From Pelomonas sp. V22 (GTDB lineage Bacteria; Pseudomonadota; Gammaproteobacteria; Burkholderiales; Burkholderiaceae_C), in assembly GCF_030014915.1 (NCBI RefSeq), contig NZ_JAGIXS010000002.1, positions 438,296 to 462,295 on the forward strand: 24,000 nucleotides of DNA, given 5' to 3'. The translations under genes were made by a program, and so were the position numbers. Positions 10,696 to 20,791 of this stretch are shown one piece after another. The notes beneath the pieces were generated by a model, which was not told the DNA's origin, ran no database searches, and saw nothing but the letters and a program-made list of their open reading frames with translations. Numbering within the stretch: the stretch's first letter is position 1; every line of letters starts with the position of its first letter.

Positions 10696-11453
10696 GCGAG
10701 GCGCGACGCCAGAGCGGCGATGCGGCCCGGCTGCGGGTCCAGCAGCCGCTGGTCGTGTCGGTAGTCCTCGGTGACCTCGATGCGCCAGCCTTGACGATCA
10801 AAGCGCCGGGCCAGCGCTGCCACGAGGTGGTCGAAGCTCAGCGCCGATTCGGCATTGCTGTCCAAGTGCACCACCCGGCCGGCAACCGCTTCGTCCTGCA
10901 ACAGGCCCAGCAAGGCCATGGCCGTTTCGGGCATGAAGGAACAAGCCGGTATCCAGCAGCGGCTGGCGGCGATGCGGCCCTGCTCGCGCTGCCAGTGGTC
11001 CAGCGTCGCGAGCATGTTGTTGCCCTGCGCGACCTCGTCGATCTGCCAACCGATGCGCGCAATGCGGGCCGTGGGGCAGGCCGCACGGATCGCATCCTCG
11101 GCGACGATCTTGAAGCGGCCGTAGTCGTCCTGCGCCGTGCGCTCGTCACCGGGGTGATGCGGGCCGTCCGGCTGATGGTGAAACACCATGGCCGTGCTGG
11201 TAAACAACAGGGGCAGATCTTGCCTCGCCGCGTACTCAGCCAGGCCCGACGCCCAGGCTGTCGGCCCCAGGGCCAGGTGGGCTATCGCATCCGGCCGGCT
11301 GGCCTGCAGGTGCGCCGCCACGGCGACCGCGTCGTCGGTCGGGATGCGCCGGCGGTCCCAGCCCAACACCTCCCAGCCGGCGCTGGCAGCCGTGCGGGCC
11401 AGATGCGGCGCCAGCGTGCCGCTGAGGCCGGTGATCAGCAAACGGCCCGGCAT
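10683..11453 (-). CDS. extended-SDR family NAD(P)-dependent reductase/epimerase (RmlD-like sugar-nucleotide-binding protein)
   Basis: N-terminal Rossmann LLITGLSGTLAPHL and a YxxxK catalytic motif (YGRFK). 256 aa. The start shares one base with the amylase stop (TGATG at 11451-11455). The 3' end overlaps the convergent SBP gene by 13 nt. Confidence 0.75.
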   Translation of the reverse strand: MPGRLLITGLSGTLAPHLARTAASAGWEVLGWDRRRIPTDDAVAVAAHLQASRPDAIAHLALGPTAWASGLAEYAARQDLPLLFTSTAMVFHHQPDGPHHPGDERTAQDDYGRFKIVAEDAIRAACPTARIARIGWQIDEVAQGNNMLATLDHWQREQGRIAASRCWIPACSFMPETAMALLGLLQDEAVAGRVVHLDSNAESALSFDHLVAALARRFDRQGWRIEVTEDYRHDQRLLDPQPGRIAALASRLAQKP

Positions 11454-12799
11454 CAGTGCCGGGTCCTTATGCTCCAGCCCCAGGGTGCCAGCTTGGCAGC
11501 CGCACCATCAAGAAGGTAGGACTGATCAGCCGCAGAAAGGTTGACCGCCACGGTCACCACATTGCCGCCCAGCTGGCGGCGGAAGGCAAAGACCTTGTCG
11601 TTGCCGGTCTCGAGCAGCTCGGCCGGCGCGCCGTACTGGCCATTGGCCAGGGCCGGGTTGTTCTTCTTCAGGGCCACAAGCTCGGCGTAGAAAGCCTGCA
11701 GCTCATAGCCCTTCCAGTCCACCAGGTCCTTCTCGAAGAAGGCCAGGCGCTTGTCGAGGCGCGACTCCTGGCCGCCGTAGATCAGCGGCATGCCGGGCAA
11801 GGTGAAGGTGAGCACGGCCAGCGCCTGGTAGGCCTCGCCATAGAGCTCGCGGTCCGTGCCGTGCCAGGAATTGAAGTCGTGGTTGCTGGTGAAGCGCATG
11901 CGGTAGGCATGACGCGGATAGACCTTCGGCGCCGTGCCTTCGTTCTGGGCCGTGAGCCAGGCGCGCATCTCGGCCGCCCCGGCCTGGCCCTTGCCCACGG
12001 CCTTGAAGACGTCAGCCAGGTCCCAGCTGTAGCTCATGTCGAAGGCGCTGCGATGCAGCTCGGGCTTGTCGGACTCGGCCAGCATGAACACCGGCTTGAT
12101 CGCATCGAGCTCGCGCCGCGCCCGCTCCCAGAAGTCGGAGGGCACGAGGCTGGCCACATCGCAGCGGAAGCCGTCCATGCCCACCTGCTGCAGCCAGAAG
12201 CTCATGGCTTCGATCATGGCCTTGCGCAGGGGCTCGCTGCGGTAGTCCAGGGCCACCACGTCGGTCCAGTACTCGGGCTCGGCACCTTCGGTGAACGTGA
12301 CCGGGAAGATCTCGCCCTTGTCGTTCAGCTTGTACCAATCCTTGTGCTGGCGGGTCCAGGGATGGTCCCAGGCCGTGTGGTTGGGCACCCAGTCAAGGAT
12401 CACCTTGAAGCCCAGCTCATGCGCGGCCTTCACCATCGCCTTGGCGTCGTCCAGCGTGCCGAACTCGGGATTCACCGCCGTGTAGTCGCTGATCGAGTAG
12501 TAGCTGCCGAGGCCGCCCTTGCGCTCCTGCTTGCCGATCGGCTGCAACGGCATGAACCAGAGGATGTCCACGCCCAGCTTGCGGATGCGTGGCAGATCGC
12601 GGGCAAAGGCCTTCAGCGTGCCCTCGGGCGTGTGCTGGCGGACGTTGACCTGGTAGATGCTGGACTGGCGCGACCAGGCCACATGGGGCATGTCGGACGC
12701 CGTGCCGGACACAGCGCTGCTGGATTGACTCATGGCGAACGGAGCGATGAAGGCGCAACAGGCCGCAAGGACCAGGGCGCGAAGCTGGGTGAAGGTCAT
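11453..12799 (-). CDS. exported GH13 alpha-amylase family glycoside hydrolase
   Basis: All four GH13 signature regions are visible: DWVPNH, GFRCDVA, FMLAES and FTSNHD. The N-terminal signal peptide MTFTQLRALVLAACCAFIAPFA has a possible LAAC lipobox or an AxA-type cleavage site. Confidence 0.9.
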   Translation of the reverse strand: MTFTQLRALVLAACCAFIAPFAMSQSSSAVSGTASDMPHVAWSRQSSIYQVNVRQHTPEGTLKAFARDLPRIRKLGVDILWFMPLQPIGKQERKGGLGSYYSISDYTAVNPEFGTLDDAKAMVKAAHELGFKVILDWVPNHTAWDHPWTRQHKDWYKLNDKGEIFPVTFTEGAEPEYWTDVVALDYRSEPLRKAMIEAMSFWLQQVGMDGFRCDVASLVPSDFWERARRELDAIKPVFMLAESDKPELHRSAFDMSYSWDLADVFKAVGKGQAGAAEMRAWLTAQNEGTAPKVYPRHAYRMRFTSNHDFNSWHGTDRELYGEAYQALAVLTFTLPGMPLIYGGQESRLDKRLAFFEKDLVDWKGYELQAFYAELVALKKNNPALANGQYGAPAELLETGNDKVFAFRRQLGGNVVTVAVNLSAADQSYLLDGAAAKLAPWGWSIRTRH

Positions 12800-12814
12800 G
12801 CGGCGCCCTGATCC

Positions 12815-14329
12815 CTAAATCTTGAGCGGCGGCGCCTTGCAATGCTGGGCGATGTAGGCCGAGTGCTCGGGCATCACGTCCACGCACTTGCCGATCACGT
12901 CACGCACGCCCTCGAGAAACTCCAGGATGCCGGCCTCGGTCTGCACATCCACCAGCGGGTGGTAGCCCTGCGTGGCCAGGTTCTGGCCTTCCATCACCTG
13001 CAGCCAGCCCACCTCGGTGAACAGCTCGTTGTTGAAGCGGAAGATCCGGCCGTGGCTGCGGTAGAGGTCCATCTTCTCCTTCAGCGTCTGCGGAATCTCC
13101 ATCGTCGCGCAGGCCTTCCAGAACTCCGAGTCGGTGCGCTGGTTCAGGTGGTAGTGCAGGATGATGAAGTCGCGGATGCGCTCGTAGTGGAAGCGGCTCT
13201 GGCGGTTGAATTCCTCGGTGTCGATGGCGCTGAAGCCCCGGTCCGGGAAGAAGTCGATCAGCTGCTGGATCGAGGCCTGGATCAGGTGGATGCTGGTCGA
13301 TTCCAGCGGTTCCAGGAAGCCGCTGGAGAGGCCGATGGCCACCACGTTCTTGTTCCAGCTCTTGCTGCGCATGCCGGTCTTGAACTTGATCATGCGCGGC
13401 TCGGCCAAGGCCTTGCCGTCGAGGTTGGCCAGCAGCGTCGCTGCGGCCTCGTCGTCGCTGATCGCGTTGCTGCAGTAGACATGGCCGTTGCCGATGCGGT
13501 GCTGCAGCGGGATGCGCCACTGCCAGCCGGCCTTGTGCGCGGTGGAGCGCGTGTAGGGCGTCAGCACCGGGGCAGACTCGCAGGGCACGGCGAGCGCGCG
13601 GTCGCAGGGAAGCCAGTGGGTCCAGTCCTCGTAGCCGGTCTGGAGCGTCTGTTCGATCAAGAGGCCGCGGAAGCCCGAACAGTCGATGAAGAGATCACCC
13701 TCGACACGCTCGCCACTTTCCAGCACCACGGCGTCGATGTGGCCATCGCCCTCGCGCTGCGTGGCATGCGAGATCTTGCCTTCGGTGCGCAGCACGCCGC
13801 GCTGCTCCGAGAGCTTGCGCAGGTAGCGCGCGTAGAGGCTGGCGTCGAAGTGGTAGGCGTAGGCAATCTCGCCCAGCGGCGAGTTCGGCAGATCGGTCTG
13901 GGCCGGCAGGAACTTGTTGGCCTTGGAGGCCATGCGGGTGATCGAGTACTCCTCCAGCGGCGCCGCCTTACCGGCGGCGCGCATCTTGCGCCAGTACTGC
14001 TCGAAGGGCACGGTCCAGAGGTCCTGGCCCACGCGGCCGAAGCCGTGCATGTAGCGATCGCCGAGTTGCCCCCAGTTGACGAACTCGATGCCCAGCTTGA
14101 ACGTGCCCTGCGTCTCGCGCATGAACTCGTTTTCGTCGAGGCCGATGGTCTTGTTGAAGCGCTGGATCATCGGGATCGTCGCTTCGCCGACACCGACGAT
14201 GCCGATTTCATCGGACTCGACGAGCCGAATCTTGAAGCGGCCACGCAACACCGTGGCCATGGCCACGGCCGTCATCCAGCCGGCCGTGCCGCCACCAACG
14301 ATGACGACGGTCTTGATGGGGGTTTGCAT
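12815..14329 (-). CDS. flavin-dependent halogenase family protein ('tryptophan halogenase' homologue, TBDT-associated type)
   Basis: GGGTAG FAD fold (14279-14296), WxWxIP motif as WQWRIP (13508-13525), FKLGIEFVNW (catalytic-Lys region) and GFLEPLESTS (catalytic-Glu region). No signal peptide. AGGA lies 6 nt before the ATG at 14329. The track ORF extends to a TTG at 14353. Confidence 0.9.
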   Translation of the reverse strand: MQTPIKTVVIVGGGTAGWMTAVAMATVLRGRFKIRLVESDEIGIVGVGEATIPMIQRFNKTIGLDENEFMRETQGTFKLGIEFVNWGQLGDRYMHGFGRVGQDLWTVPFEQYWRKMRAAGKAAPLEEYSITRMASKANKFLPAQTDLPNSPLGEIAYAYHFDASLYARYLRKLSEQRGVLRTEGKISHATQREGDGHIDAVVLESGERVEGDLFIDCSGFRGLLIEQTLQTGYEDWTHWLPCDRALAVPCESAPVLTPYTRSTAHKAGWQWRIPLQHRIGNGHVYCSNAISDDEAAATLLANLDGKALAEPRMIKFKTGMRSKSWNKNVVAIGLSSGFLEPLESTSIHLIQASIQQLIDFFPDRGFSAIDTEEFNRQSRFHYERIRDFIILHYHLNQRTDSEFWKACATMEIPQTLKEKMDLYRSHGRIFRFNNELFTEVGWLQVMEGQNLATQGYHPLVDVQTEAGILEFLEGVRDVIGKCVDVMPEHSAYIAQHCKAPPLKI

Positions 14330-14377
14330 GCTCATTCCTGCTTGCCTCGACAAGCCGGCGACGCGCCGGCCGTTGAT

Positions 14378-14429: not shown

Positions 14430-17300
14430 TTACAGCTTGTAGTTGATGCCGAACAGATAGGTCTTGCCGTACTTGATCGTGTCGGTGATCGCGTTCGGGT
14501 CAGAGTTGTAGCGCTGGAACTTCGAGTTCGTCATGTTGTTGCCCTGAGCCAGCAGCGACAGGCCCTTCAACCAGCCGGACTGGAACTCGTAAGACAGCTG
14601 CAGGTCGACAATCGACTCGCCCTTGATGAAGGTGAGCTGGCGGTTGTCCTGGAAGTCGCTGACCTCACCCAGGAAGTCCGAGCGCTTGCGCTGGGCCACG
14701 GCGATCTGGAAGCCGGCCTTCTCGTAGTAGAAGCGCAGGTTGGTGACCTTCTTCGACAGGCCCGGCAGCGGGATCTTGATCGTGCCGACGTTCTCCACCG
14801 AGAAGCCCGCGGTGGGCAGCTCGACCGAGCTCGAGGTGTTCGAGTGGTTCAGCATGACGCCGAAGCCATCGAGCCACGAGGACACGAAGTTCAGGGGCAC
14901 GTTGATCGCCAGTTCGATGCCGCGGATGTTGCCACCCTCGCCATTGATCGGCTGGTTCAGCAGGCCGACGGTCGAACCCTTGTTGGGGCCGGTGGTCGGC
15001 AGCGGCGTGTTGGCGCTGGTGTAGGGCTTGAAGTCGAACAGCGTGGGCACGCGCAGGATGTAGCTGTCGAGCTTCTTGTAGAAGCCGGCGGCACTGAAGT
15101 AGCCCTTGCTGCCGAAGTACTTCTCGTAGGAAACGTCAACGGCCTTGGCGCGGAAAGGGTTCAGCTTCGGGTTGCCACCGTCGCCGGTCAGGATCTGCGA
15201 GCCGGTGTTGTTCACCGAGTAACCCAGGCTGGCACGCATGTCGTTCATGTTGGCCCGCGACAGCACCTTGGCTGCGGCGAAGCGCATCACCTGGTCGCCG
15301 CCCAGGTCGAAGTTCATGTTCAGGCTGGGCAGGAAGTCGGTGTAGGTCTTGCCTTGTGCCACCGTGGCACCCGGGCAGGTGGCCGCCGTGTTGCCCGTGC
15401 AGCTTGCACGATCGACGTTGAAGCCGGTCGACTCCTGGTTCGTGTGCACCAACTGGGCACCCACGTTGCCGCGGTAGTTCAGGCCGAACAGCTCACCATC
15501 GAGGTCGCCCTTGAAGTAGCCGGTCGTGACCTTTTCCTGGACGCTCCAGTCCTTGTTCAGGATGTCGGAGTCGACCTTCTTGGCCAGGTCATAAACAGTG
15601 CCCAGCGAACCGCGCGGATCCCAGGACACCACCTGCAGGCCCGTCGTGCCGGCGATGGCAATGTCCGAACCCGGCACCGTGGCGGCACCGTAAGGGTCAT
15701 TGCCCTTGATGACCAGGCGACCTTCCTGGGTCTGGCGGATCTTCTCGCGGCTCGTGTAGTTCACGCCGAACTCGCCGGCCACGATGGGGCCCCAACGCAG
15801 CTCGGTCTTGCCCGAGAGGCGCAGGCTGTCGATCTTGTCCTGCACATGAGGCAGGGCCACATAGCCGGCCTGCGGCGAGGATTCGCCACCGGACCAGCCG
15901 TCCACGTCCGTCAGCTTGGCAACGGCGCGGTCGGCGTAGCTCAGGCTGGTCGAGTACTTCACGTCGGTGAAGTTGGAGCCGTTGAAACCGGTCCAGCTGA
16001 TCGAGCCCAGGCCGGCGGCACTCTTGTTGCCATTGCCAGGCTGACCGGCGGTGGTTTCGTAGCGCGAGGAGTCACGCACCACACGCGACTGCGACAGATC
16101 GGCCAGCAAGGTCCAGTCCGCCACCTTCAGCTTGTTGTTCCAGCCCCAGGACTTCAGGCTGTCGTCGCCGCCCTCGACGTGGTTGCGCACCACGCCCTTG
16201 TAGTTGGACAGCGTGCCCGAGGCCACAACGCCATTGGCGATCGTGTAGTTGGTGATCTGGCCGCGCGGGTCGTAGGAGGCGTTGTCGTCGTCACCAATGG
16301 CGCCTTCCAGGCCGGTCTTCTTCAAGCCGAAACGGCCCTTGGAATAGAAGTAGTCGAAGGTCGACTCGAAGTCCTTGTTGGGCTTCCACTGCAGCGTGGC
16401 CATGCGGCCTTCGCGGGTGGCGGTGCTGGTCTCGGTGTCAGCGGTGAAGCCACCGATCACATTGACCTTGCCAACGCCAGAGGTGCAACCGGCCGGGGGC
16501 GTCGGGCCGTCGCAGGCCAGCAACGGCGAGCCGGCAGCGCCACTCGGCGCAAACGGCAGCGTCCAGCCGCCCCAGGAATTGAACTTCTGCTGGTCGGCGC
16601 CCTTCTCGTCGAACTTGACCAGACCCAGGGCCACACCGATGGTGCGGTCGGCGAACTGGTCGATGTAGCTGACCGACTTGCGCGTGCCCGTGCCCTCACC
16701 GGCACCCGAAGCCACGCCGGTGCGCTGCTTGCGGTAATTGACGGCAGCCTGGCGCTCCTTGAAGTTCAGCGGACGCACCGTCTGCAGGTCGATGGTCGAG
16801 GCGAGACCCTGCCCGACGAGGGCGCCGTCCGGGCTCTTGTAGATCAGGACCGAGGCCAGCAGTTCGGACGGATACAGGTCGAACTCGACGCCACGGCTGT
16901 CGCCGCTGGACGCTTGTTCGCGGCCGTTAAGCAGAGCGCCGTTGAAGTCGGGCGACATGCCGCGCACGCTGACGCTGGAGGCCTTGCCGGTGGACTTGTT
17001 GCGCTGCGAGGCCACACCCGGCAGGCGCGAAACCGACTCGGCCACCGAAGCGTCGGGCAGCTTGCCGATGTCTTCGGCCGAGATCGCTTCGATGATGGAG
17101 TCCGAGCCTTTCTTGGCCGAGATCGCGTCTTCGATGCCCTTGCGGATGCCGGTGACGGTCACCGTCTCCAGGGTCTGGGCTGGCGGCGTGGTGGCCGGGG
17201 CCGTCTGGGCGTAGACGCCACTGGCCACCATGAGCACCGCACAGCCGGCGACCACCGGGCTGAGACGGAACTGCTCATGCTTCTGTCGGGATGTCTTCAT
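14430..17300 (-). CDS. TonB-dependent outer-membrane receptor (oligosaccharide/maltodextrin-type by context)
   Basis: 956 aa. Signal peptide ...AVLMVASGVYAQ, a TonB-box-like ETVTVTG, plug-domain motifs (IEAISAEDIGKLPDASVAESVSRLPGV; VSVRGMSPDFNGALLNGRE) and a long beta-barrel region. AGGAGA Shine-Dalgarno 7 nt upstream. No N-terminal signalling extension. Confidence 0.95.
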   Translation of the reverse strand: MKTSRQKHEQFRLSPVVAGCAVLMVASGVYAQTAPATTPPAQTLETVTVTGIRKGIEDAISAKKGSDSIIEAISAEDIGKLPDASVAESVSRLPGVASQRNKSTGKASSVSVRGMSPDFNGALLNGREQASSGDSRGVEFDLYPSELLASVLIYKSPDGALVGQGLASTIDLQTVRPLNFKERQAAVNYRKQRTGVASGAGEGTGTRKSVSYIDQFADRTIGVALGLVKFDEKGADQQKFNSWGGWTLPFAPSGAAGSPLLACDGPTPPAGCTSGVGKVNVIGGFTADTETSTATREGRMATLQWKPNKDFESTFDYFYSKGRFGLKKTGLEGAIGDDDNASYDPRGQITNYTIANGVVASGTLSNYKGVVRNHVEGGDDSLKSWGWNNKLKVADWTLLADLSQSRVVRDSSRYETTAGQPGNGNKSAAGLGSISWTGFNGSNFTDVKYSTSLSYADRAVAKLTDVDGWSGGESSPQAGYVALPHVQDKIDSLRLSGKTELRWGPIVAGEFGVNYTSREKIRQTQEGRLVIKGNDPYGAATVPGSDIAIAGTTGLQVVSWDPRGSLGTVYDLAKKVDSDILNKDWSVQEKVTTGYFKGDLDGELFGLNYRGNVGAQLVHTNQESTGFNVDRASCTGNTAATCPGATVAQGKTYTDFLPSLNMNFDLGGDQVMRFAAAKVLSRANMNDMRASLGYSVNNTGSQILTGDGGNPKLNPFRAKAVDVSYEKYFGSKGYFSAAGFYKKLDSYILRVPTLFDFKPYTSANTPLPTTGPNKGSTVGLLNQPINGEGGNIRGIELAINVPLNFVSSWLDGFGVMLNHSNTSSSVELPTAGFSVENVGTIKIPLPGLSKKVTNLRFYYEKAGFQIAVAQRKRSDFLGEVSDFQDNRQLTFIKGESIVDLQLSYEFQSGWLKGLSLLAQGNNMTNSKFQRYNSDPNAITDTIKYGKTYLFGINYKL

Positions 17301-17494
17301 TTCTTGTCTCCTGAAGCTTTTCTAACAACACAAGCCCCGCAACGATCTGGGAGTAGTTCTTGTCGGGGAACCGAGAACCTGTAATTTGCAAGAATTCTGT
17401 ACTAAAACTAGATCGACTGCCAATACAAAGAAAACCCTAGCGAAGCTCAATTCATCGATGTTTTGCGGAAAAACGACTGATAAAACATGGGTTA

Positions 17495-17533
17495 ACCCTT
17501 TGTTTCCGGCCAAACATCAAACAAACAAAGGGT
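17495..17533 (-). terminator. possible terminator/stem-loop after glk (11-bp arms)
   Basis: ACCCTTTGTTT (17495-17505) is the exact reverse complement of AAACAAAGGGT (17523-17533), with a 17-nt loop. On the minus strand it sits about 40 nt after the glk stop and is followed by ...CAUGUUUUAUC, a weak U-tract. It is AT-rich and alternative pairings exist. Confidence 0.3.
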
Positions 17534-17550
17534 AAATACCTGTCTTGATA

Positions 17551-17565
17551 TGTAGCTCAACTACA
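17551..17565. promoter_or_regulatory. HexR-like operator candidate A (TGTAGCTCAACTACA)
   Basis: TGTA-N7-TACA dyad with 5-bp perfect arms (TGTAG/CTACA), in the AT-rich region between the glk stop and the TBDT start. Confidence 0.45.
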
Positions 17566-17572
17566 AACAAGC

Positions 17573-18550
17573 TCAGACCTGCTCCAGCGCCAGGGCGGCG
17601 CCACTGAGGGCGGCCAGGGTGTCGGTGATGAGGACAGTAGGCACGGCCTCCAGGTAAGAGCGGAAGCGCCCCTTGGCCTCGAAGCGCTCGCGGAAGCGCG
17701 AGGCAAAGAAGCGGTCACCCAGCCTCGGCACGATGCCGCCGCCGATGTAGACGCCGCCACGCGCACCCAGCGTCAGGGCCACGCTGCCGGCAAAGCCGCC
17801 GAGCAAGGCACAGAACACGTCCAGGGTCTGGGCACACGAGGCATCCTGGCCGGCGATACCGTTCTCGACGATCTGCTCCGCCGCCAGGGGCGCCGCCAGC
17901 GCCTGCCCACCGAGGCGAGCGACGGCCGCATGCAGCACCGGCAGGCCGATGCCGGACAGCAGGCGCTCGGCCGACACATGGGCATGCTCGCGCCGCACCA
18001 GGGCCAGCAGCTCGCTCTCGAAATCGTCGGCCGGCGCCAGCGTGGCATGGCCGCCCTCGCCCGGCAGCGCCACCCAGCCATGAGCGGTCTGGATCACACC
18101 GCCCACACCCAGGCCGGTGCCCGGGCCGATGACCGCCAGCGTGCCCTGCGGTGTCGGCAGGCCACCCGATCCGCGCAACTGGTCGGGCCGCAGACGCGGC
18201 AGCGACAAGGCCAGCGCCTCGAAGTCATTCAGCACCAGCAGGCGCTCCAGGCCCAAGCCCTCGCGCGCCGCCGCTATGGAGAAGCCCCAGGGGCTGTTGG
18301 TGAACTCCACCATGTCGCCGGCCACGGCCGTGGCCACGGCCACCGCCGCATGACGGGGCCGCAGCGGCCGCGCATCGGCGCCGCCGGGCAGCCCCTCCAG
18401 ATAGGCCTCCACCGCCTCGGCCAGCCCCGCATGGGCAGCAACCGGCAGGCTGCGCACATGAAGAATCGGACCGCCCGCCCGCTCGACCAGGCCAAACCGG
18501 GCATTGCTGCCGCCCACATCGGCCACCAGGCACAAACCATCCCGATTCAT
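17573..18550 (-). CDS. glk: glucokinase (stand-alone)
   Basis: MNRDGLCLVADVGGSNARFGL..., LNDFEA, GPGTGLGVGG, PGEGGH, VSAERLLSG and GGGIVPRLGDRFFASRFRERFEAKGRF align along the full length with E. coli Glk as I recall it. GAGG lies 8 nt upstream of the ATG at 18550. The track ORF start at 18613 adds a non-homologous leader. Confidence 0.9.
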   Translation of the reverse strand: MNRDGLCLVADVGGSNARFGLVERAGGPILHVRSLPVAAHAGLAEAVEAYLEGLPGGADARPLRPRHAAVAVATAVAGDMVEFTNSPWGFSIAAAREGLGLERLLVLNDFEALALSLPRLRPDQLRGSGGLPTPQGTLAVIGPGTGLGVGGVIQTAHGWVALPGEGGHATLAPADDFESELLALVRREHAHVSAERLLSGIGLPVLHAAVARLGGQALAAPLAAEQIVENGIAGQDASCAQTLDVFCALLGGFAGSVALTLGARGGVYIGGGIVPRLGDRFFASRFRERFEAKGRFRSYLEAVPTVLITDTLAALSGAALALEQV

Positions 18551-18634
18551 GGACGCACCTCGGCGCAGAGAGGGGCACGGAGCCCAGCAAGACGACACAT
18601 AGACAGGAGGCACACAGGAATGGGAAGTTGATAA

Positions 18635-18649
18635 GGTAGCAAAACTACA
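18635..18649. promoter_or_regulatory. HexR-like operator candidate B (GGTAGCAAAACTACA)
   Basis: It has one mismatch to the TGTA-N7-TACA core. It lies inside the spacer of a possible minus-strand promoter (TTGATG-17-TATCAA) about 85 nt upstream of glk. Confidence 0.4.
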
Positions 18650-18710
18650 TCATCAAGACAAGCGTACTAGGCCTTACTCTGTACATTGCCCGGTAAACGG
18701 TCAAAGTTCA

Positions 18711-18727
18711 ATGTAGCCCAGCTACAT
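18711..18727. promoter_or_regulatory. HexR-like operator candidate C (ATGTAGC-CCA-GCTACAT, perfect 7-bp arms)
   Basis: Perfect 17-bp dyad containing TGTA-N7-TACA, located in the divergent glk / glk-hexR intergenic region. Confidence 0.5.
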
Positions 18728-18877
18728 TTATCGGCGTATGGTGGGCGCTGCGGTCCTGTTGGGGCCGCGCAGATCTGCGGCCTCGGGCGCCCATGCGCCG
18801 GGGCCGTGCCCTCGGACGGTGCGCAATTGCGGCTCATAATCGCGCGCCGCCCGCTCCACAGGTCCGTCCCGCCCGCC

Positions 18878-20791
18878 ATGACCTCTTTCGACAGCCCCCG
18901 ACTCATTGCCGACATCGGCGGTACCTATGCGCGTTTCGCGCTGGAGACCTCTCAGGGCGAGTTCAGCCAGATCGCCTCGCTGCGCTGCGCCGAGCATGCG
19001 GACTTCCACGCGGCGGTCAGCAACTATCTGCAGATGCTGCCGGCCGGCACCGAGGTGCGGCATGCGGCGATAGCGATTGCCAACCCGGTCGAGGGCGACT
19101 CGGTGCGCATGACCAACTACCACTGGCAGTTCTCCATCGAGGAGATGCGCCAGCGCCTCGGCTTCGACACGCTGGTGGTGGTCAACGACTTCACCGCCCT
19201 CGCCATGGCCGTGCCGCGCCTGCGCCCCAGCGACCTGCGCCAGATCGGCGGCGGCGAGCCGCGCCGGCAGAGCGTGGTGGGCGTGCTGGGCTCGGGCTCG
19301 GGCCTCGGCACCTCGGGCCTGATCCCGGTCGGCGAAGGCTGGATCTCGCTGGGCGCCGAGGGCGGCCACACCAGCTTCTCGCCGCGCGACGAGCGCGAGA
19401 TCGACATCCTGCGCTTTGCCTGGCAGCAGTTCGAGCATGTGTCCTTCGAGCGCCTGGTCTCGGGCCCCGGCCTGGAACTGATCTATCGCGCCCTCGCGCA
19501 GCGGGCCGGCGCTGCCGCCGCTCCGCTGGCCGCGCCGGACATCACCCAGCGCGCGCTCGACGAAAGCGACGCCGTCTGCGTCGAGGCGCTGGACATGTTC
19601 TGCGCCCTGCTCGGCACAGCCGCTGCCAACCTGGCGGTGACGCTGGGGGCGCTGGGCGGCATCTACATCGGCGGCGGCATCGTCCCGCGCCTGGGTGCGT
19701 ACTTCGACCGTTCGCGCTTCCGCGCGCGCTTCGAGGACAAGGGCCGTTTCCGCGACTATGTGGCCGGCATCCCCACCTATGTGATCACCGCCGAGCAGGC
19801 CACGTTCATGGGCGCCTCGGCCATCCTGGACGCCCAGCTGCGCACCCTGGAGAGCACGCCCGGCTCGGCCATCCTCGGCCAGATCCGCCGCGCCCGCAGC
19901 GAGCTTTCGCCGGCCGAGCTGCGCGTGGCCGAGCATGTGCTTGCCCATCCGCGCGACGTGCTGAACGACCCCATCATTGAGATCGCCAAGGCCGCGCAGG
20001 TCAGCCAACCGACGGTGATCCGCTTCTGCCGCTCGCTGGGCTGCGAAGGCCTGTCGGACTTCAAGCTGCGTCTCGCCTCGGGCCTCACCGGCACGGTGCC
20101 GGTCACGCACACCCAGGTGATGCAGGACGACTCGGTGGTCGAGCTCGGCGCCAAGGTGCTGGGCAACACGGCCTCGGCCATCCTGCAGGTGCGCAGCGAA
20201 CTGAACCGCGAAATGATCGACCGCGCCATCGAGCTGCTGCTGAACGCCAACCGCATCGAGTTCTTCGCCGTCGGCCATTACGGCGTGGTGGCGCAGGACG
20301 CGCAGTTCAAGTTCCTGCGCTTCGGCGTCTCGAGCAGCGCCTACACCGACCCACGCCTGCAGGCCCTGGCCGCCGGCGTGCTGGGCCCGCGCGACGTGGC
20401 CGTCATCATCAGTTCGAGCGGCAAGCTGCCCGAGTTGCTCGAGGTGGCCGACAAGGCGCGCGAGCGCGGCGCCGCCGTCGTGGCCATCACGGCCAGCCAG
20501 TCGCCGCTGGCGCGCAAGGCCGATGCCACGCTGATCGTCGACCATGTGGAAGACGTCTCCACCCACCTGCCCATGATCAGCCGCATCCTGCACCTGCTGG
20601 TGATCGACATCCTGGCCGTGGGCGTGGCCATGCGCCGCCATGCCGACGGCGTGCAGGCCCTCGGCGGCAATGCCGATGCGGCGCTGGACGAAGCCGAGCC
20701 GAGCCCGGCCGCCGCGCCCACGGCCAAGCGGGCCGCGCCTGGCATCAGCATGGCTTCGCCGCTGTCCAAGTTGACCTCGCACAGCCGCTGA
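18878..20791 (+). CDS. hexR: bifunctional glucokinase / RpiR(HexR)-family transcriptional regulator fusion protein
   Basis: The N-terminal roughly 330 aa is a second full-length glucokinase (LIADIGGTYARFAL, VNDFTA, GSGSGLG, AEGGH, VSFERLVSG, GGGIVPRLGAYFDRSRFRARFEDKGRF). It is followed by an RpiR HTH (ELSPAELRVAEHVLAHP...IAKAAQVSQPTVIRFCRSLG), a SIS domain (IEFFAVGHYGVVAQDAQFKF...VIISSSGKLPELLEVA...VVAITAS) and an Ala/Pro-rich tail. The ATG at 18878 gives a Glk-like N-terminal spacing. Confidence 0.9.
   Translation: MTSFDSPRLIADIGGTYARFALETSQGEFSQIASLRCAEHADFHAAVSNYLQMLPAGTEVRHAAIAIANPVEGDSVRMTNYHWQFSIEEMRQRLGFDTLVVVNDFTALAMAVPRLRPSDLRQIGGGEPRRQSVVGVLGSGSGLGTSGLIPVGEGWISLGAEGGHTSFSPRDEREIDILRFAWQQFEHVSFERLVSGPGLELIYRALAQRAGAAAAPLAAPDITQRALDESDAVCVEALDMFCALLGTAAANLAVTLGALGGIYIGGGIVPRLGAYFDRSRFRARFEDKGRFRDYVAGIPTYVITAEQATFMGASAILDAQLRTLESTPGSAILGQIRRARSELSPAELRVAEHVLAHPRDVLNDPIIEIAKAAQVSQPTVIRFCRSLGCEGLSDFKLRLASGLTGTVPVTHTQVMQDDSVVELGAKVLGNTASAILQVRSELNREMIDRAIELLLNANRIEFFAVGHYGVVAQDAQFKFLRFGVSSSAYTDPRLQALAAGVLGPRDVAVIISSSGKLPELLEVADKARERGAAVVAITASQSPLARKADATLIVDHVEDVSTHLPMISRILHLLVIDILAVGVAMRRHADGVQALGGNADAALDEAEPSPAAAPTAKRAAPGISMASPLSKLTSHSR

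Follow-up and report, generated by a model that had tools for sequence, protein, structure and literature searches.

Inverted repeats of the type TGTA-N7-TACA flank and separate two divergent glucokinase genes in the DNA analysed here, a stretch of 24,000 nucleotides (the window, G000:C2:438296-462295) from a 5.08 Mb genome of the Pelomonas/Roseateles group with a G+C content of 67%. One of the two genes, glk, encodes a stand-alone glucokinase; the other, glk-rpiR, encodes a glucokinase fused to a regulator of the RpiR/HexR family. On the basis of sequence comparisons, we consider it likely that the dyads are operators of this fusion protein, which would be a HexR paralogue running a dedicated α-glucan regulon. 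Throughout, G-numbers denote the genomes compared, G000 being that of the window, and C-numbers denote contigs; distances before a gene are given in nt upstream of its start codon. The proposal involves the following features of the window.

14430..17300, minus strand: gene of a TonB-dependent receptor (TBDT) of 956 aa, TonB-Xanth-Caul subfamily (TIGR01782, 558.6 bits against a cut-off of 310), the proposed target gene
17394..17423, minus strand: predicted sigma-70 promoter of the TBDT gene (TTGGCA, 18 nt, CAGAAT), from a promoter scan
17398..17412, minus strand: site A', a degenerate dyad reading TGTACTAAAACTAGA (TCTAGTTTTAGTACA on the minus strand), predicted to be the proximal operator, from a one-mismatch scan
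17551..17565, no strand assigned: site A, TGTAGCTCAACTACA, a perfect dyad TGTAG-N5-CTACA and predicted distal operator of the TBDT gene, by sequence match
17573..18550, minus strand: glk, stand-alone glucokinase of 325 aa, divergent from the fusion gene, by profile matches
18635..18649, no strand assigned: site B, GGTAGCAAAACTACA, located 85-99 nt upstream of glk, by sequence match
18711..18727, no strand assigned: site C, ATGTAGCCCAGCTACAT, ATGTAGC-CCA-GCTACAT with perfect 7-bp arms, by sequence match
18878..20791, plus strand: glk-rpiR fusion gene, 637 aa, Glucokinase + HTH_6 + SIS by domain matches, encoding the proposed dyad binder

A direct check of the sequence found sites A, B and C where the first-pass annotation of this DNA had placed them, including the perfect arms of site C. 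Its observation that the dyads occur only in the non-coding stretches flanking glk also stood, as all three exact cores of the window are non-coding. The three occurrences of GTAG-N5-CTAC compare with 0.07 expected, and none of 100 dinucleotide shuffles of the window reached three. Site A lies 8 nt beyond the glk stop codon and 251 nt before the receptor ATG, in line with the roughly 250 nt reported at first. Sites B and C share the 327-bp spacer between glk and the fusion gene, and the location of site C, 152-166 nt before the fusion-gene ATG, makes autoregulation likely. The hexamers TTGATG and TATCAA, 17 nt apart around site B, are present as originally described, but we rejected their interpretation as the glk promoter: the -10 hexamer has no T at position 6, the promoter scan is silent at this position, and the hexamers are not conserved in orthologues. 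Separately, a CATAAT sequence at 18836-18841 (context GGCTCATAATCGCGCGCC), about 40 nt before the fusion-gene ATG and conserved in G000, G001, G002 and G012, may be a -10 element; no good -35 hexamer precedes it, and site C would then be situated about 115 bp upstream.

Allowing one mismatch to TGTA-N7-TACA uncovered a fourth site in the window, A', which the first-pass annotation had overlooked. Site A' takes up the spacer of the predicted TBDT promoter and the beginning of its -10 hexamer; this promoter is the sole promoter-like match of the scan between 17250 and 18900, and its elements TTGGCA and CA[GA]AAT are largely kept in G001 and G017. In an alignment of receptor-gene leaders from four genera, which are 63% identical overall, TCTAGTTTTAGTACA is invariant; in all four, A' lies 109-113 nt before the ATG and downstream of A at a spacing of 151-154 bp. 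Counting all genera compared, the A' sequence is unchanged in five. The exact A' 15-mer occurs once per genome in 7 of 41 genomes, exactly those with a fusion gene of at least 74% identity, and an exact-match scan found it absent from the other 34. Of the positional evidence, the overlap of A' with the predicted promoter speaks most strongly for a repressor that occludes the promoter and is helped by site A. Matches to site A are located 248-296 nt before the TBDT start in G001, G005, G012, G017 and G033, and since the receptor of G033 is 20 kb away from glk, site A belongs to the receptor gene and not to the end of glk. The same leaders contain a CTAGGGTTT box (window 17432-17440, minus strand), about 20 nt upstream of A' and nearly invariant in the four genera, that could be an UP-like element or the site of a second factor. 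Closer to the receptor ATG, a TGTGTTGTT box and the CAGGAGAC ribosome-binding region are likewise conserved.

Genome-wide, G000 contains six exact GTAG-N5-CTAC cores, compared with 5-22 expected from simple models, so that a raised total had to be discarded as an argument. The non-randomness of the dyads instead resides in their clustering and context: five of the six fall within 38 kb (C2:419-457 kb), all of them intergenic and with AT-rich spacers. The sixth, CGTAGCAGAACTACT at C1:734421, lacks the flanking T and A, scores below 11.3 bits in a weight-matrix scan, ranks outside the top 45 and was set aside as background. The matrix, trained on the six contig-C2 sites and scanned over the whole G000 genome, returned a single strong match outside its training set (C6:22307, 23.2 bits). 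This site is positioned 50 nt before the gene of a secreted-type pullulanase of 1192 aa, the second and larger pullulanase of the predicted regulon, encoded on another contig, and has a weaker partner 76 bp off; the next-best match (18.0 bits) lies within a coding region. On contig C2, the spacer between divergent pullulanase and cyclomaltodextrinase genes carries AGTAGCAAAACTACA and the weaker AGTAATTTAGCTACA, and that between glgP-glgB-glgX-malQ and malK-malE-malF-malG-glucosidase carries TGTAGTTTCACTACA and TGTTGTAACACTACA. The site-bearing spacers of G000 flank α-glucan genes only. With the same operator type before it, the operon malK-malE-malF-malG-GH13 glucosidase-aldo/keto reductase (GH, glycoside hydrolase family; C2:431268-438721), about 24 kb upstream of the receptor gene in the window, would supply the inner-membrane transporter to the α-glucan cluster.

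The first-pass annotation had expected the motif to be enriched upstream of genes such as zwf, edd, eda and gap. This prediction failed: the genome-wide matrix scan gave no TGTAG-type match at zwf, edd, eda, pgi or gap, and zwf and edd carry a different dyad, GTAAC-N3-GTTAC. The genome scan that it had suggested as a check thus yielded sites that are strictly intergenic and functionally coherent, but their common function is α-glucan use and not the Entner-Doudoroff pathway. Paired sites in G000 are 77 bp (18635/18712), 76 bp (C6:22233/22309), 88 bp (C2:431213/431301) and 89 bp (C2:419247/419336) apart, and A and A' are separated by 153 bp. Helical phasing in multiples of 11 was considered and dropped, as 81 pairs at orthologous loci, which are not independent of each other, span 78-396 bp and show weak periodicity, with a best R of 0.27; the conserved A-A' spacing is the exception. 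Downstream of the receptor gene, the window encodes two further proteins:

11453..14353, minus strand: flavin halogenase homologue and GH13 α-amylase, by profile matches

Exact and one-mismatch scans of the window detected no dyad of their own upstream of these two genes, and their co-regulation with the receptor gene is probable.

The dyads recur before the fusion gene across a broad set of relatives. We collected 79 orthologous fusion-gene loci from GTDB species representatives, covering Roseateles, Paucibacter, Mitsuaria, Pelomonas, Ideonella, Undibacterium and others, and counted without bias all pairs of a 4-mer and its reverse complement at gaps of 0-12 in the 450 nt before each gene. 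TGTA-N7-TACA was the top dyad (56 of 79 loci) and GTAG-N5-CTAC the second (53 of 79), followed by TAGT-N3-ACTA (16 of 79), which is the inner part of the same palindrome; the two leading dyads were not encountered in coding controls. The 122 orthologous sites yield the consensus TGTAGY-N3-RCTACA with a free spacer, and so conform to the 15-bp palindrome of RccR/HexR-type operators, TGTAGT-N3-ACTACA with a substitution-tolerant spacer of 3 nt. Two sites precede 41 of the 79 orthologues and three precede 8, and the identical site-B 15-mer is found before 34. Whereas the half-sites are nearly invariant, positions 6 and 10 frequently hold bases that do not pair, such as the C and A of GGTAGCAAAACTACA, a combination that fits recognition by a protein and not an RNA stem.

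The divergent arrangement of glk and glk-rpiR is kept in at least seven other genomes, G001, G002, G005, G012, G015, G017 and G033, which represent several genera. In an alignment of such spacers, with an overall identity of 42%, site B forms an island of identity and site C recurs, but conservation does not extend to the additional outer arms of site B. As in G000, the exact core is rare in five relatives, with 6-22 copies per genome that group around the fusion gene. Sites precede the receptor gene in six genomes and the glgP orthologues in three (G001, G005 and G012). They are also located before the smaller pullulanase gene of G001, G005, G012 and G017, which in G001 is divergent from a cyclomaltodextrinase gene, and before the larger one of G001 and G005. 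Five family members devoid of the fusion gene display 0-8 scattered matches, nearly all with GC-rich spacers and none in a cluster; among the genomes searched, clusters of TGTAG sites are restricted to those bearing the fusion gene. In G040, a member of another family, a glk and an rpiR-type gene (G040:C6:270189-272007) are adjacent and overlapping, with a stop codon between them, and are thus unfused; the fusion may have arisen from such a pair, or the pair may be a split version of it.

Profile matches place the two halves of the fusion protein in the RpiR/MurR and glucokinase families. Its regulator half has an HTH_6 domain at residues 332-402 (PF01418, 67 bits against a cut-off of 28) and after it a SIS domain at residues 454-580 (PF01380, 59.5 bits against a cut-off of 25), and its other half matches PF02685 (373.6 bits) and TIGR00749 (316.5 bits, cut-off 225). 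It scores 235 bits on the HexR profile NF008451, below the cut-off of 296, and 812 bits on the equivalog NF010701, for which 920 are needed and where the match covers positions 17-601 of 638. The closest named orthologue, from 'Pelomonas sp. SE-A7', is 91% identical. Escherichia coli Glk binds and phosphorylates its sugar through the motifs N99-D100, E157-G-G-H160 and E187. The corresponding ND, EGGH and E motifs are intact in the fusion and invariant in 81 orthologues, suggesting that its glucokinase domain is intact.

The best match of the RpiR part among solved structures is RccR (E about 1e-63), the Pseudomonas paralogue of HexR, whose structure is available as PDB 8JU9 (PMC11014249) and as the near-identical chain 8K3B. 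In RccR, KDPG (2-keto-3-deoxy-6-phosphogluconate) is held at its phosphate by S139, S183, S185 and S188 and at C1 by H148, R152 and K270, with additional contacts from H164 and R277 (PMC11014249). The fusion protein does not retain this set: the alignment with RccR reveals the pocket replacements A138H, S139Y, H148F, H164R and S188L, and preserves R152, S183 and S185, and the low-complexity tail of the fusion does not align with the C-terminal helix that bears K270 and R277. In the 81 orthologues, Y139, R152 and S183 are fixed, and H138, F148, R164 and L188 are nearly so. The SIS pocket of the fusion is therefore remodelled rather than decayed. As KDPG-contacting residues are replaced, canonical sensing of KDPG by the fusion is unlikely; plausibly, the Glk domain takes part in sensing glucose or a glucose phosphate.

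G000 encodes two HTH_6 proteins, the second of which has 288 aa (C1:1436548); its gene overlaps the stop codon of zwf and lies opposite the transaldolase gene (tal<>zwf-hexR). This stand-alone HexR keeps all nine of the residues S139, H148, R152, H164, S183, S185, S188, K270 and R277, and scores 245 bits on NF008451, also below the cut-off. A perfect GTAAC-TTC-GTTAC precedes zwf (C1:1435029), and GTAAC-N3-GTTAC with at most one mismatch is situated 39 nt before edd-eda (C1:74073) and 48 nt before ppc (C2:523900); the zwf and ppc sites recur in relatives. A further site of this type, C7:358649, lies near a contig end with no called gene adjoining. In functional terms, HexR is defined by operators before zwf, edd and eda, which in G000 are not of the TGTAG type; GTAAC-N3-GTTAC and the stand-alone HexR would together constitute a classical HexR-type central-carbon regulon comprising tal<>zwf-hexR, edd-eda and ppc. 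Since a zwf-linked, KDPG-competent HexR is present and the GTAAC dyad marks the central genes, the title of 'central-carbon regulator HexR' does not belong to the fused protein in this genome.

These results divide the two central claims of the first-pass annotation. It had regarded the dyads as the operator set of the fused 'HexR'; footprint-like conservation and co-occurrence uphold a conserved set tied to the fusion gene, but not the central-carbon identity of its regulator. It had further proposed that the central-carbon HexR controls an outer-membrane glycan importer. The sites before the receptor gene in six genomes speak for control of the importer, but the existence of a separate zwf-linked HexR with an intact KDPG pocket takes the role from the central-carbon regulator.

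The two dyads of G000 differ in the fourth and fifth bases of the half-site (GTAAC versus GTAGY), and the fusion and the stand-alone HexR are about 47% identical over the RpiR part. Their recognition helices are distinct as well: VSQPTVIRF is found in all Glk fusions examined and VSKPTVVRF in the stand-alone HexR proteins of the window's family, the latter pairing in G000 with GTAAC sites. A Burkholderia-type stand-alone HexR, which is encoded beside TGTAG sites, carries VSQPTIARF, and RccR carries VSEPTIVRF. The correlation between recognition helix and half-site is suggestive only.

Comparison with RccR lends the operator assignment its closest experimental parallel. RccR recognizes the 15-bp operator TGTAGT-N3-ACTACA, for example TGTAGTAAAACTACA, as established by chromatin immunoprecipitation sequencing, surface plasmon resonance, DNase I footprinting and electrophoretic mobility shift assays; at aceE two copies are 68 bp apart, and the protein tolerates substitutions in the spacer but not changes in the half-sites (PMC5489143, PMC11014249). 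Like the fusion protein, RccR of P. fluorescens and P. aeruginosa has HTH_6 and SIS domains; it binds a TGTAG dyad, uses two sites in a promoter region and is autoregulated, as is predicted for the fusion, and both coexist with a HexR that reads a different dyad, in Pseudomonas TTGT-N7-8-ACAA (PMC5489143). In contrast to the fusion, RccR has no glucokinase domain, responds to KDPG and governs aceEF, the glyoxylate shunt and gluconeogenesis. HexR of P. putida and Shewanella oneidensis belongs to the same family and uses a palindromic operator of the same type. The published proteobacterial HexR core regulon comprises zwf, pgl, edd, eda, glk and pykA, so that glk is a core HexR target, and the supplement with the regulon tables mentions neither maltodextrin nor pullulanase nor amylase (PMC5343134). 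The central-carbon role of HexR fits the stand-alone zwf-linked paralogue of G000, not the fusion.

A second type of fusion is the Burkholderia-type bifunctional transcriptional regulator/glucokinase (NCBIfam NF010701, PRK14101). The representative of G060 scores 1339 bits on NF010701, above the cut-off of 920, and is the third gene of a zwf-pgl-glk/hexR operon with TGTAGTTAAACTACA directly before zwf. In the same genome, two TGTAG sites separate edd from a second hexR, and another site, a perfect TGTAGTCAAACTACA, is situated 24 nt before a GH3 β-glucosidase gene (G060:C24:79430). TGTAG-type HexR sites thus reach glycoside hydrolases in the Burkholderia-type lineage too. The Burkholderia-type fusion resembles that of the window in its three-domain architecture, its recognition helix VSQPTVIRFCRSLGC and its TGTAG-N5-CTACA dyads, but differs in belonging to a zwf operon and an Entner-Doudoroff regulon, whereas the fusion gene of the window has its own divergent promoter region. 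Their pockets also differ, with H Y F R R S S S L in the window's fusion and N S Y R Y S K S A in the Burkholderia type. The G060 sites identify the TGTAG motif class as the ordinary β-proteobacterial 'HexR' dyad. The likeness to HexR/RpiR operators pointed out in the first-pass annotation was hence well founded, given the footprinting of RccR on TGTAGTAAAACTACA and the presence of TGTAGTTAAACTACA before zwf in a Burkholderia-type genome. What sets the window's lineage apart is a division of labour, in which TGTAG and the fusion would serve α-glucan loci, and GTAAC and HexR central carbon.

Known regulators of maltose metabolism include MalT in E. coli, the LacI-family proteins MalR and MalI, and GlvR, an RpiR-family activator of the maltose operon of Bacillus subtilis. 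Their regulons are similar to that predicted for the fusion in that they cover a binding-protein-dependent maltodextrin transporter, a phosphorylase, an amylomaltase and a pullulanase. Unlike the fusion, they belong to other families (GlvR has another architecture) and use other operators, and none is known to be fused to a glucokinase. In Streptococcus pneumoniae, MalR is reported to control a pullulanase as well (PMC4451989). Our literature search retrieved no description of a 'bifunctional glucokinase' with an RpiR part, nor of an RpiR, maltodextrin or TonB-dependent regulon of this kind in Roseateles or Pelomonas.

On the basis of these comparisons, we propose the following model. By analogy with HexR and RccR, the fusion protein would occupy its 15-bp dyads in the absence of inducer and repress transcription, probably as a tetramer that bridges paired sites. 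At the receptor gene, binding to A' would occlude the promoter, assisted by site A about 153 bp upstream. A sugar signal, probably not canonical KDPG, would release the protein; it may act by way of the glucokinase domain, which is intact, or be another phosphosugar. The predicted regulon would consist of the receptor operon (A, A'), glk together with the regulator's own gene (B, C) and, outside the window, pullulanase<>cyclomaltodextrinase, glgP-glgB-glgX-malQ<>malKEFG-glucosidase and the larger pullulanase, and would serve starch, pullulan, maltodextrin and glycogen. The genes tal<>zwf-hexR, edd-eda and ppc would be controlled separately by the stand-alone HexR reading GTAAC-N3-GTTAC. A bolder version, which we put forward only tentatively, is that of a 'trigger enzyme' repressor, with the glucokinase domain instead of the SIS pocket as the sensor: glucose set free from imported maltodextrins would, on being bound or phosphorylated, detach the protein from its operators, or glucose 6-phosphate produced in cis would do so after transfer to the remodelled SIS pocket. 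If so, the fused copy would have swapped both its half-site (GTAGY versus GTAAC) and its signal (glucose for KDPG) after duplication of HexR, splitting one ancestral regulon into one for uptake and depolymerisation and one for central carbon.

Several observations weigh against the operator model. The assignment of the binder is indirect, drawing on co-localisation, the autoregulatory position, co-occurrence in many genomes and a family-typical motif, and cross-binding by the stand-alone HexR with its closely related helix-turn-helix is possible. Searches for the exact core found none near glgP in G017 or near the larger pullulanase in G012. Between sites B and C and the start codons there are 85-240 nt, and no conserved promoter can be placed on these sites; repression from these two sites is an assumption, as activators also exist in the RpiR family. 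Moreover, Glk-RpiR fusions elsewhere, including the Burkholderia type encoded within a zwf operon, likewise have pockets unlike that of RccR, so that the pocket change alone is no proof of lost KDPG sensing. With these points included, the fused regulator is still probably the binder: no other regulator gene is found beside the site-bearing operons of G000, where LysR and MarR genes between the loci are next to unrelated genes and carry no dyad, and the fusion gene is the only regulator gene in the compact cluster of G017 (malG, pullulanase, amylase, receptor, glk and fusion).

Binding of the dyads by an unrelated factor encoded elsewhere, such as a LacI- or GntR-type maltose regulator for which the fusion gene is merely a target, would accord with the use of MalT or LacI-family proteins in the maltose regulons of other Proteobacteria, and the gene calls used here were crude. 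We nonetheless judge it improbable, since the geometry and half-site of the motif are exactly those of the RpiR family (PMC5489143) and not of the CG-centred LacI type, the sites track the fusion gene across genomes, the G017 cluster holds no other candidate, and two or three sites before a regulator's own gene are the usual signature of autoregulation. An unrelated factor would need to match the fusion gene in its distribution over the genomes and also have an RpiR-type motif. Closer to the picture drawn in the first-pass annotation, the canonical KDPG-sensing HexR encoded beside zwf could itself bind the dyads, with Entner-Doudoroff flux gating the glycan importer. The sequence identity of the two RpiR parts, their similar helix-turn-helix sequences, the small difference between the two dyads, mostly confined to one or two bases of each half-site, and the TGTAG dyads at zwf and edd in the Burkholderia-type genome would all be compatible with this view. 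However, most genomes of the family contain a stand-alone HexR, yet TGTAG clusters and the A' 15-mer occur only together with the fusion gene; in G000, the dyad at zwf, edd and ppc is GTAAC-N3-GTTAC, and these genes have no TGTAG site; and the recognition helices of the family's stand-alone proteins contain SKPTVV, compared with SQPTVI in the fusions. We consequently rate this alternative as highly improbable.

We find it hardly credible that the palindromes act as RNA, be it as hairpins, terminators or a repeat family, or are due to chance, even though site A follows the glk stop codon so closely and 35-nt stretches at B and C fold better than shuffled sequences (z -4.8 and -2.8). The stems are short (5-8 bp), AT-rich and of -6 to -10 kcal/mol, without a T run; the hairpin of site A (-8 kcal/mol, z -1.26) is no better than shuffles and the scan reports no terminator there, and Rfam yielded no match in 17200-18950. 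Furthermore, the half-sites are invariant instead of covarying, with their frequently unpairable positions 6 and 10 and the unconserved outer arms of site B, the spacers of divergent genes hold most of the sites, and the count of three matches was not attained in any shuffle.

The operator model would provide a regulator and an operator for the starch and maltodextrin systems of widespread freshwater and soil Burkholderiales (Roseateles, Pelomonas, Paucibacter, Mitsuaria, Ideonella and Undibacterium). A single predicted regulon would join a TonB-dependent outer-membrane importer, secreted pullulanases, the inner-membrane transporter MalEFGK and cytoplasmic enzymes of the glycogen type. With two paralogues of the HexR family in the same cell, set apart by one or two bases of the half-site and by a remodelled ligand pocket, the system would also suit work on specificity swaps, and it cautions against assigning 'HexR = Entner-Doudoroff regulon' to every HexR-like protein.

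Besides the two genes of the window (17573-18550 and 18878-20791), G000 holds three glucokinase-family matches, at C1:1625380-1626333, C5:101452-102402 and C1:1853423-1854394, which brings their number to five; the match at C1:1853423 contains an internal TGA. NCBI, UniRef and JGI records label Glk-HTH-SIS proteins of 631-661 aa (orthologues P0002, P0005, P0016 and others) simply 'glucokinase', a public name that leaves the regulator half unmentioned.

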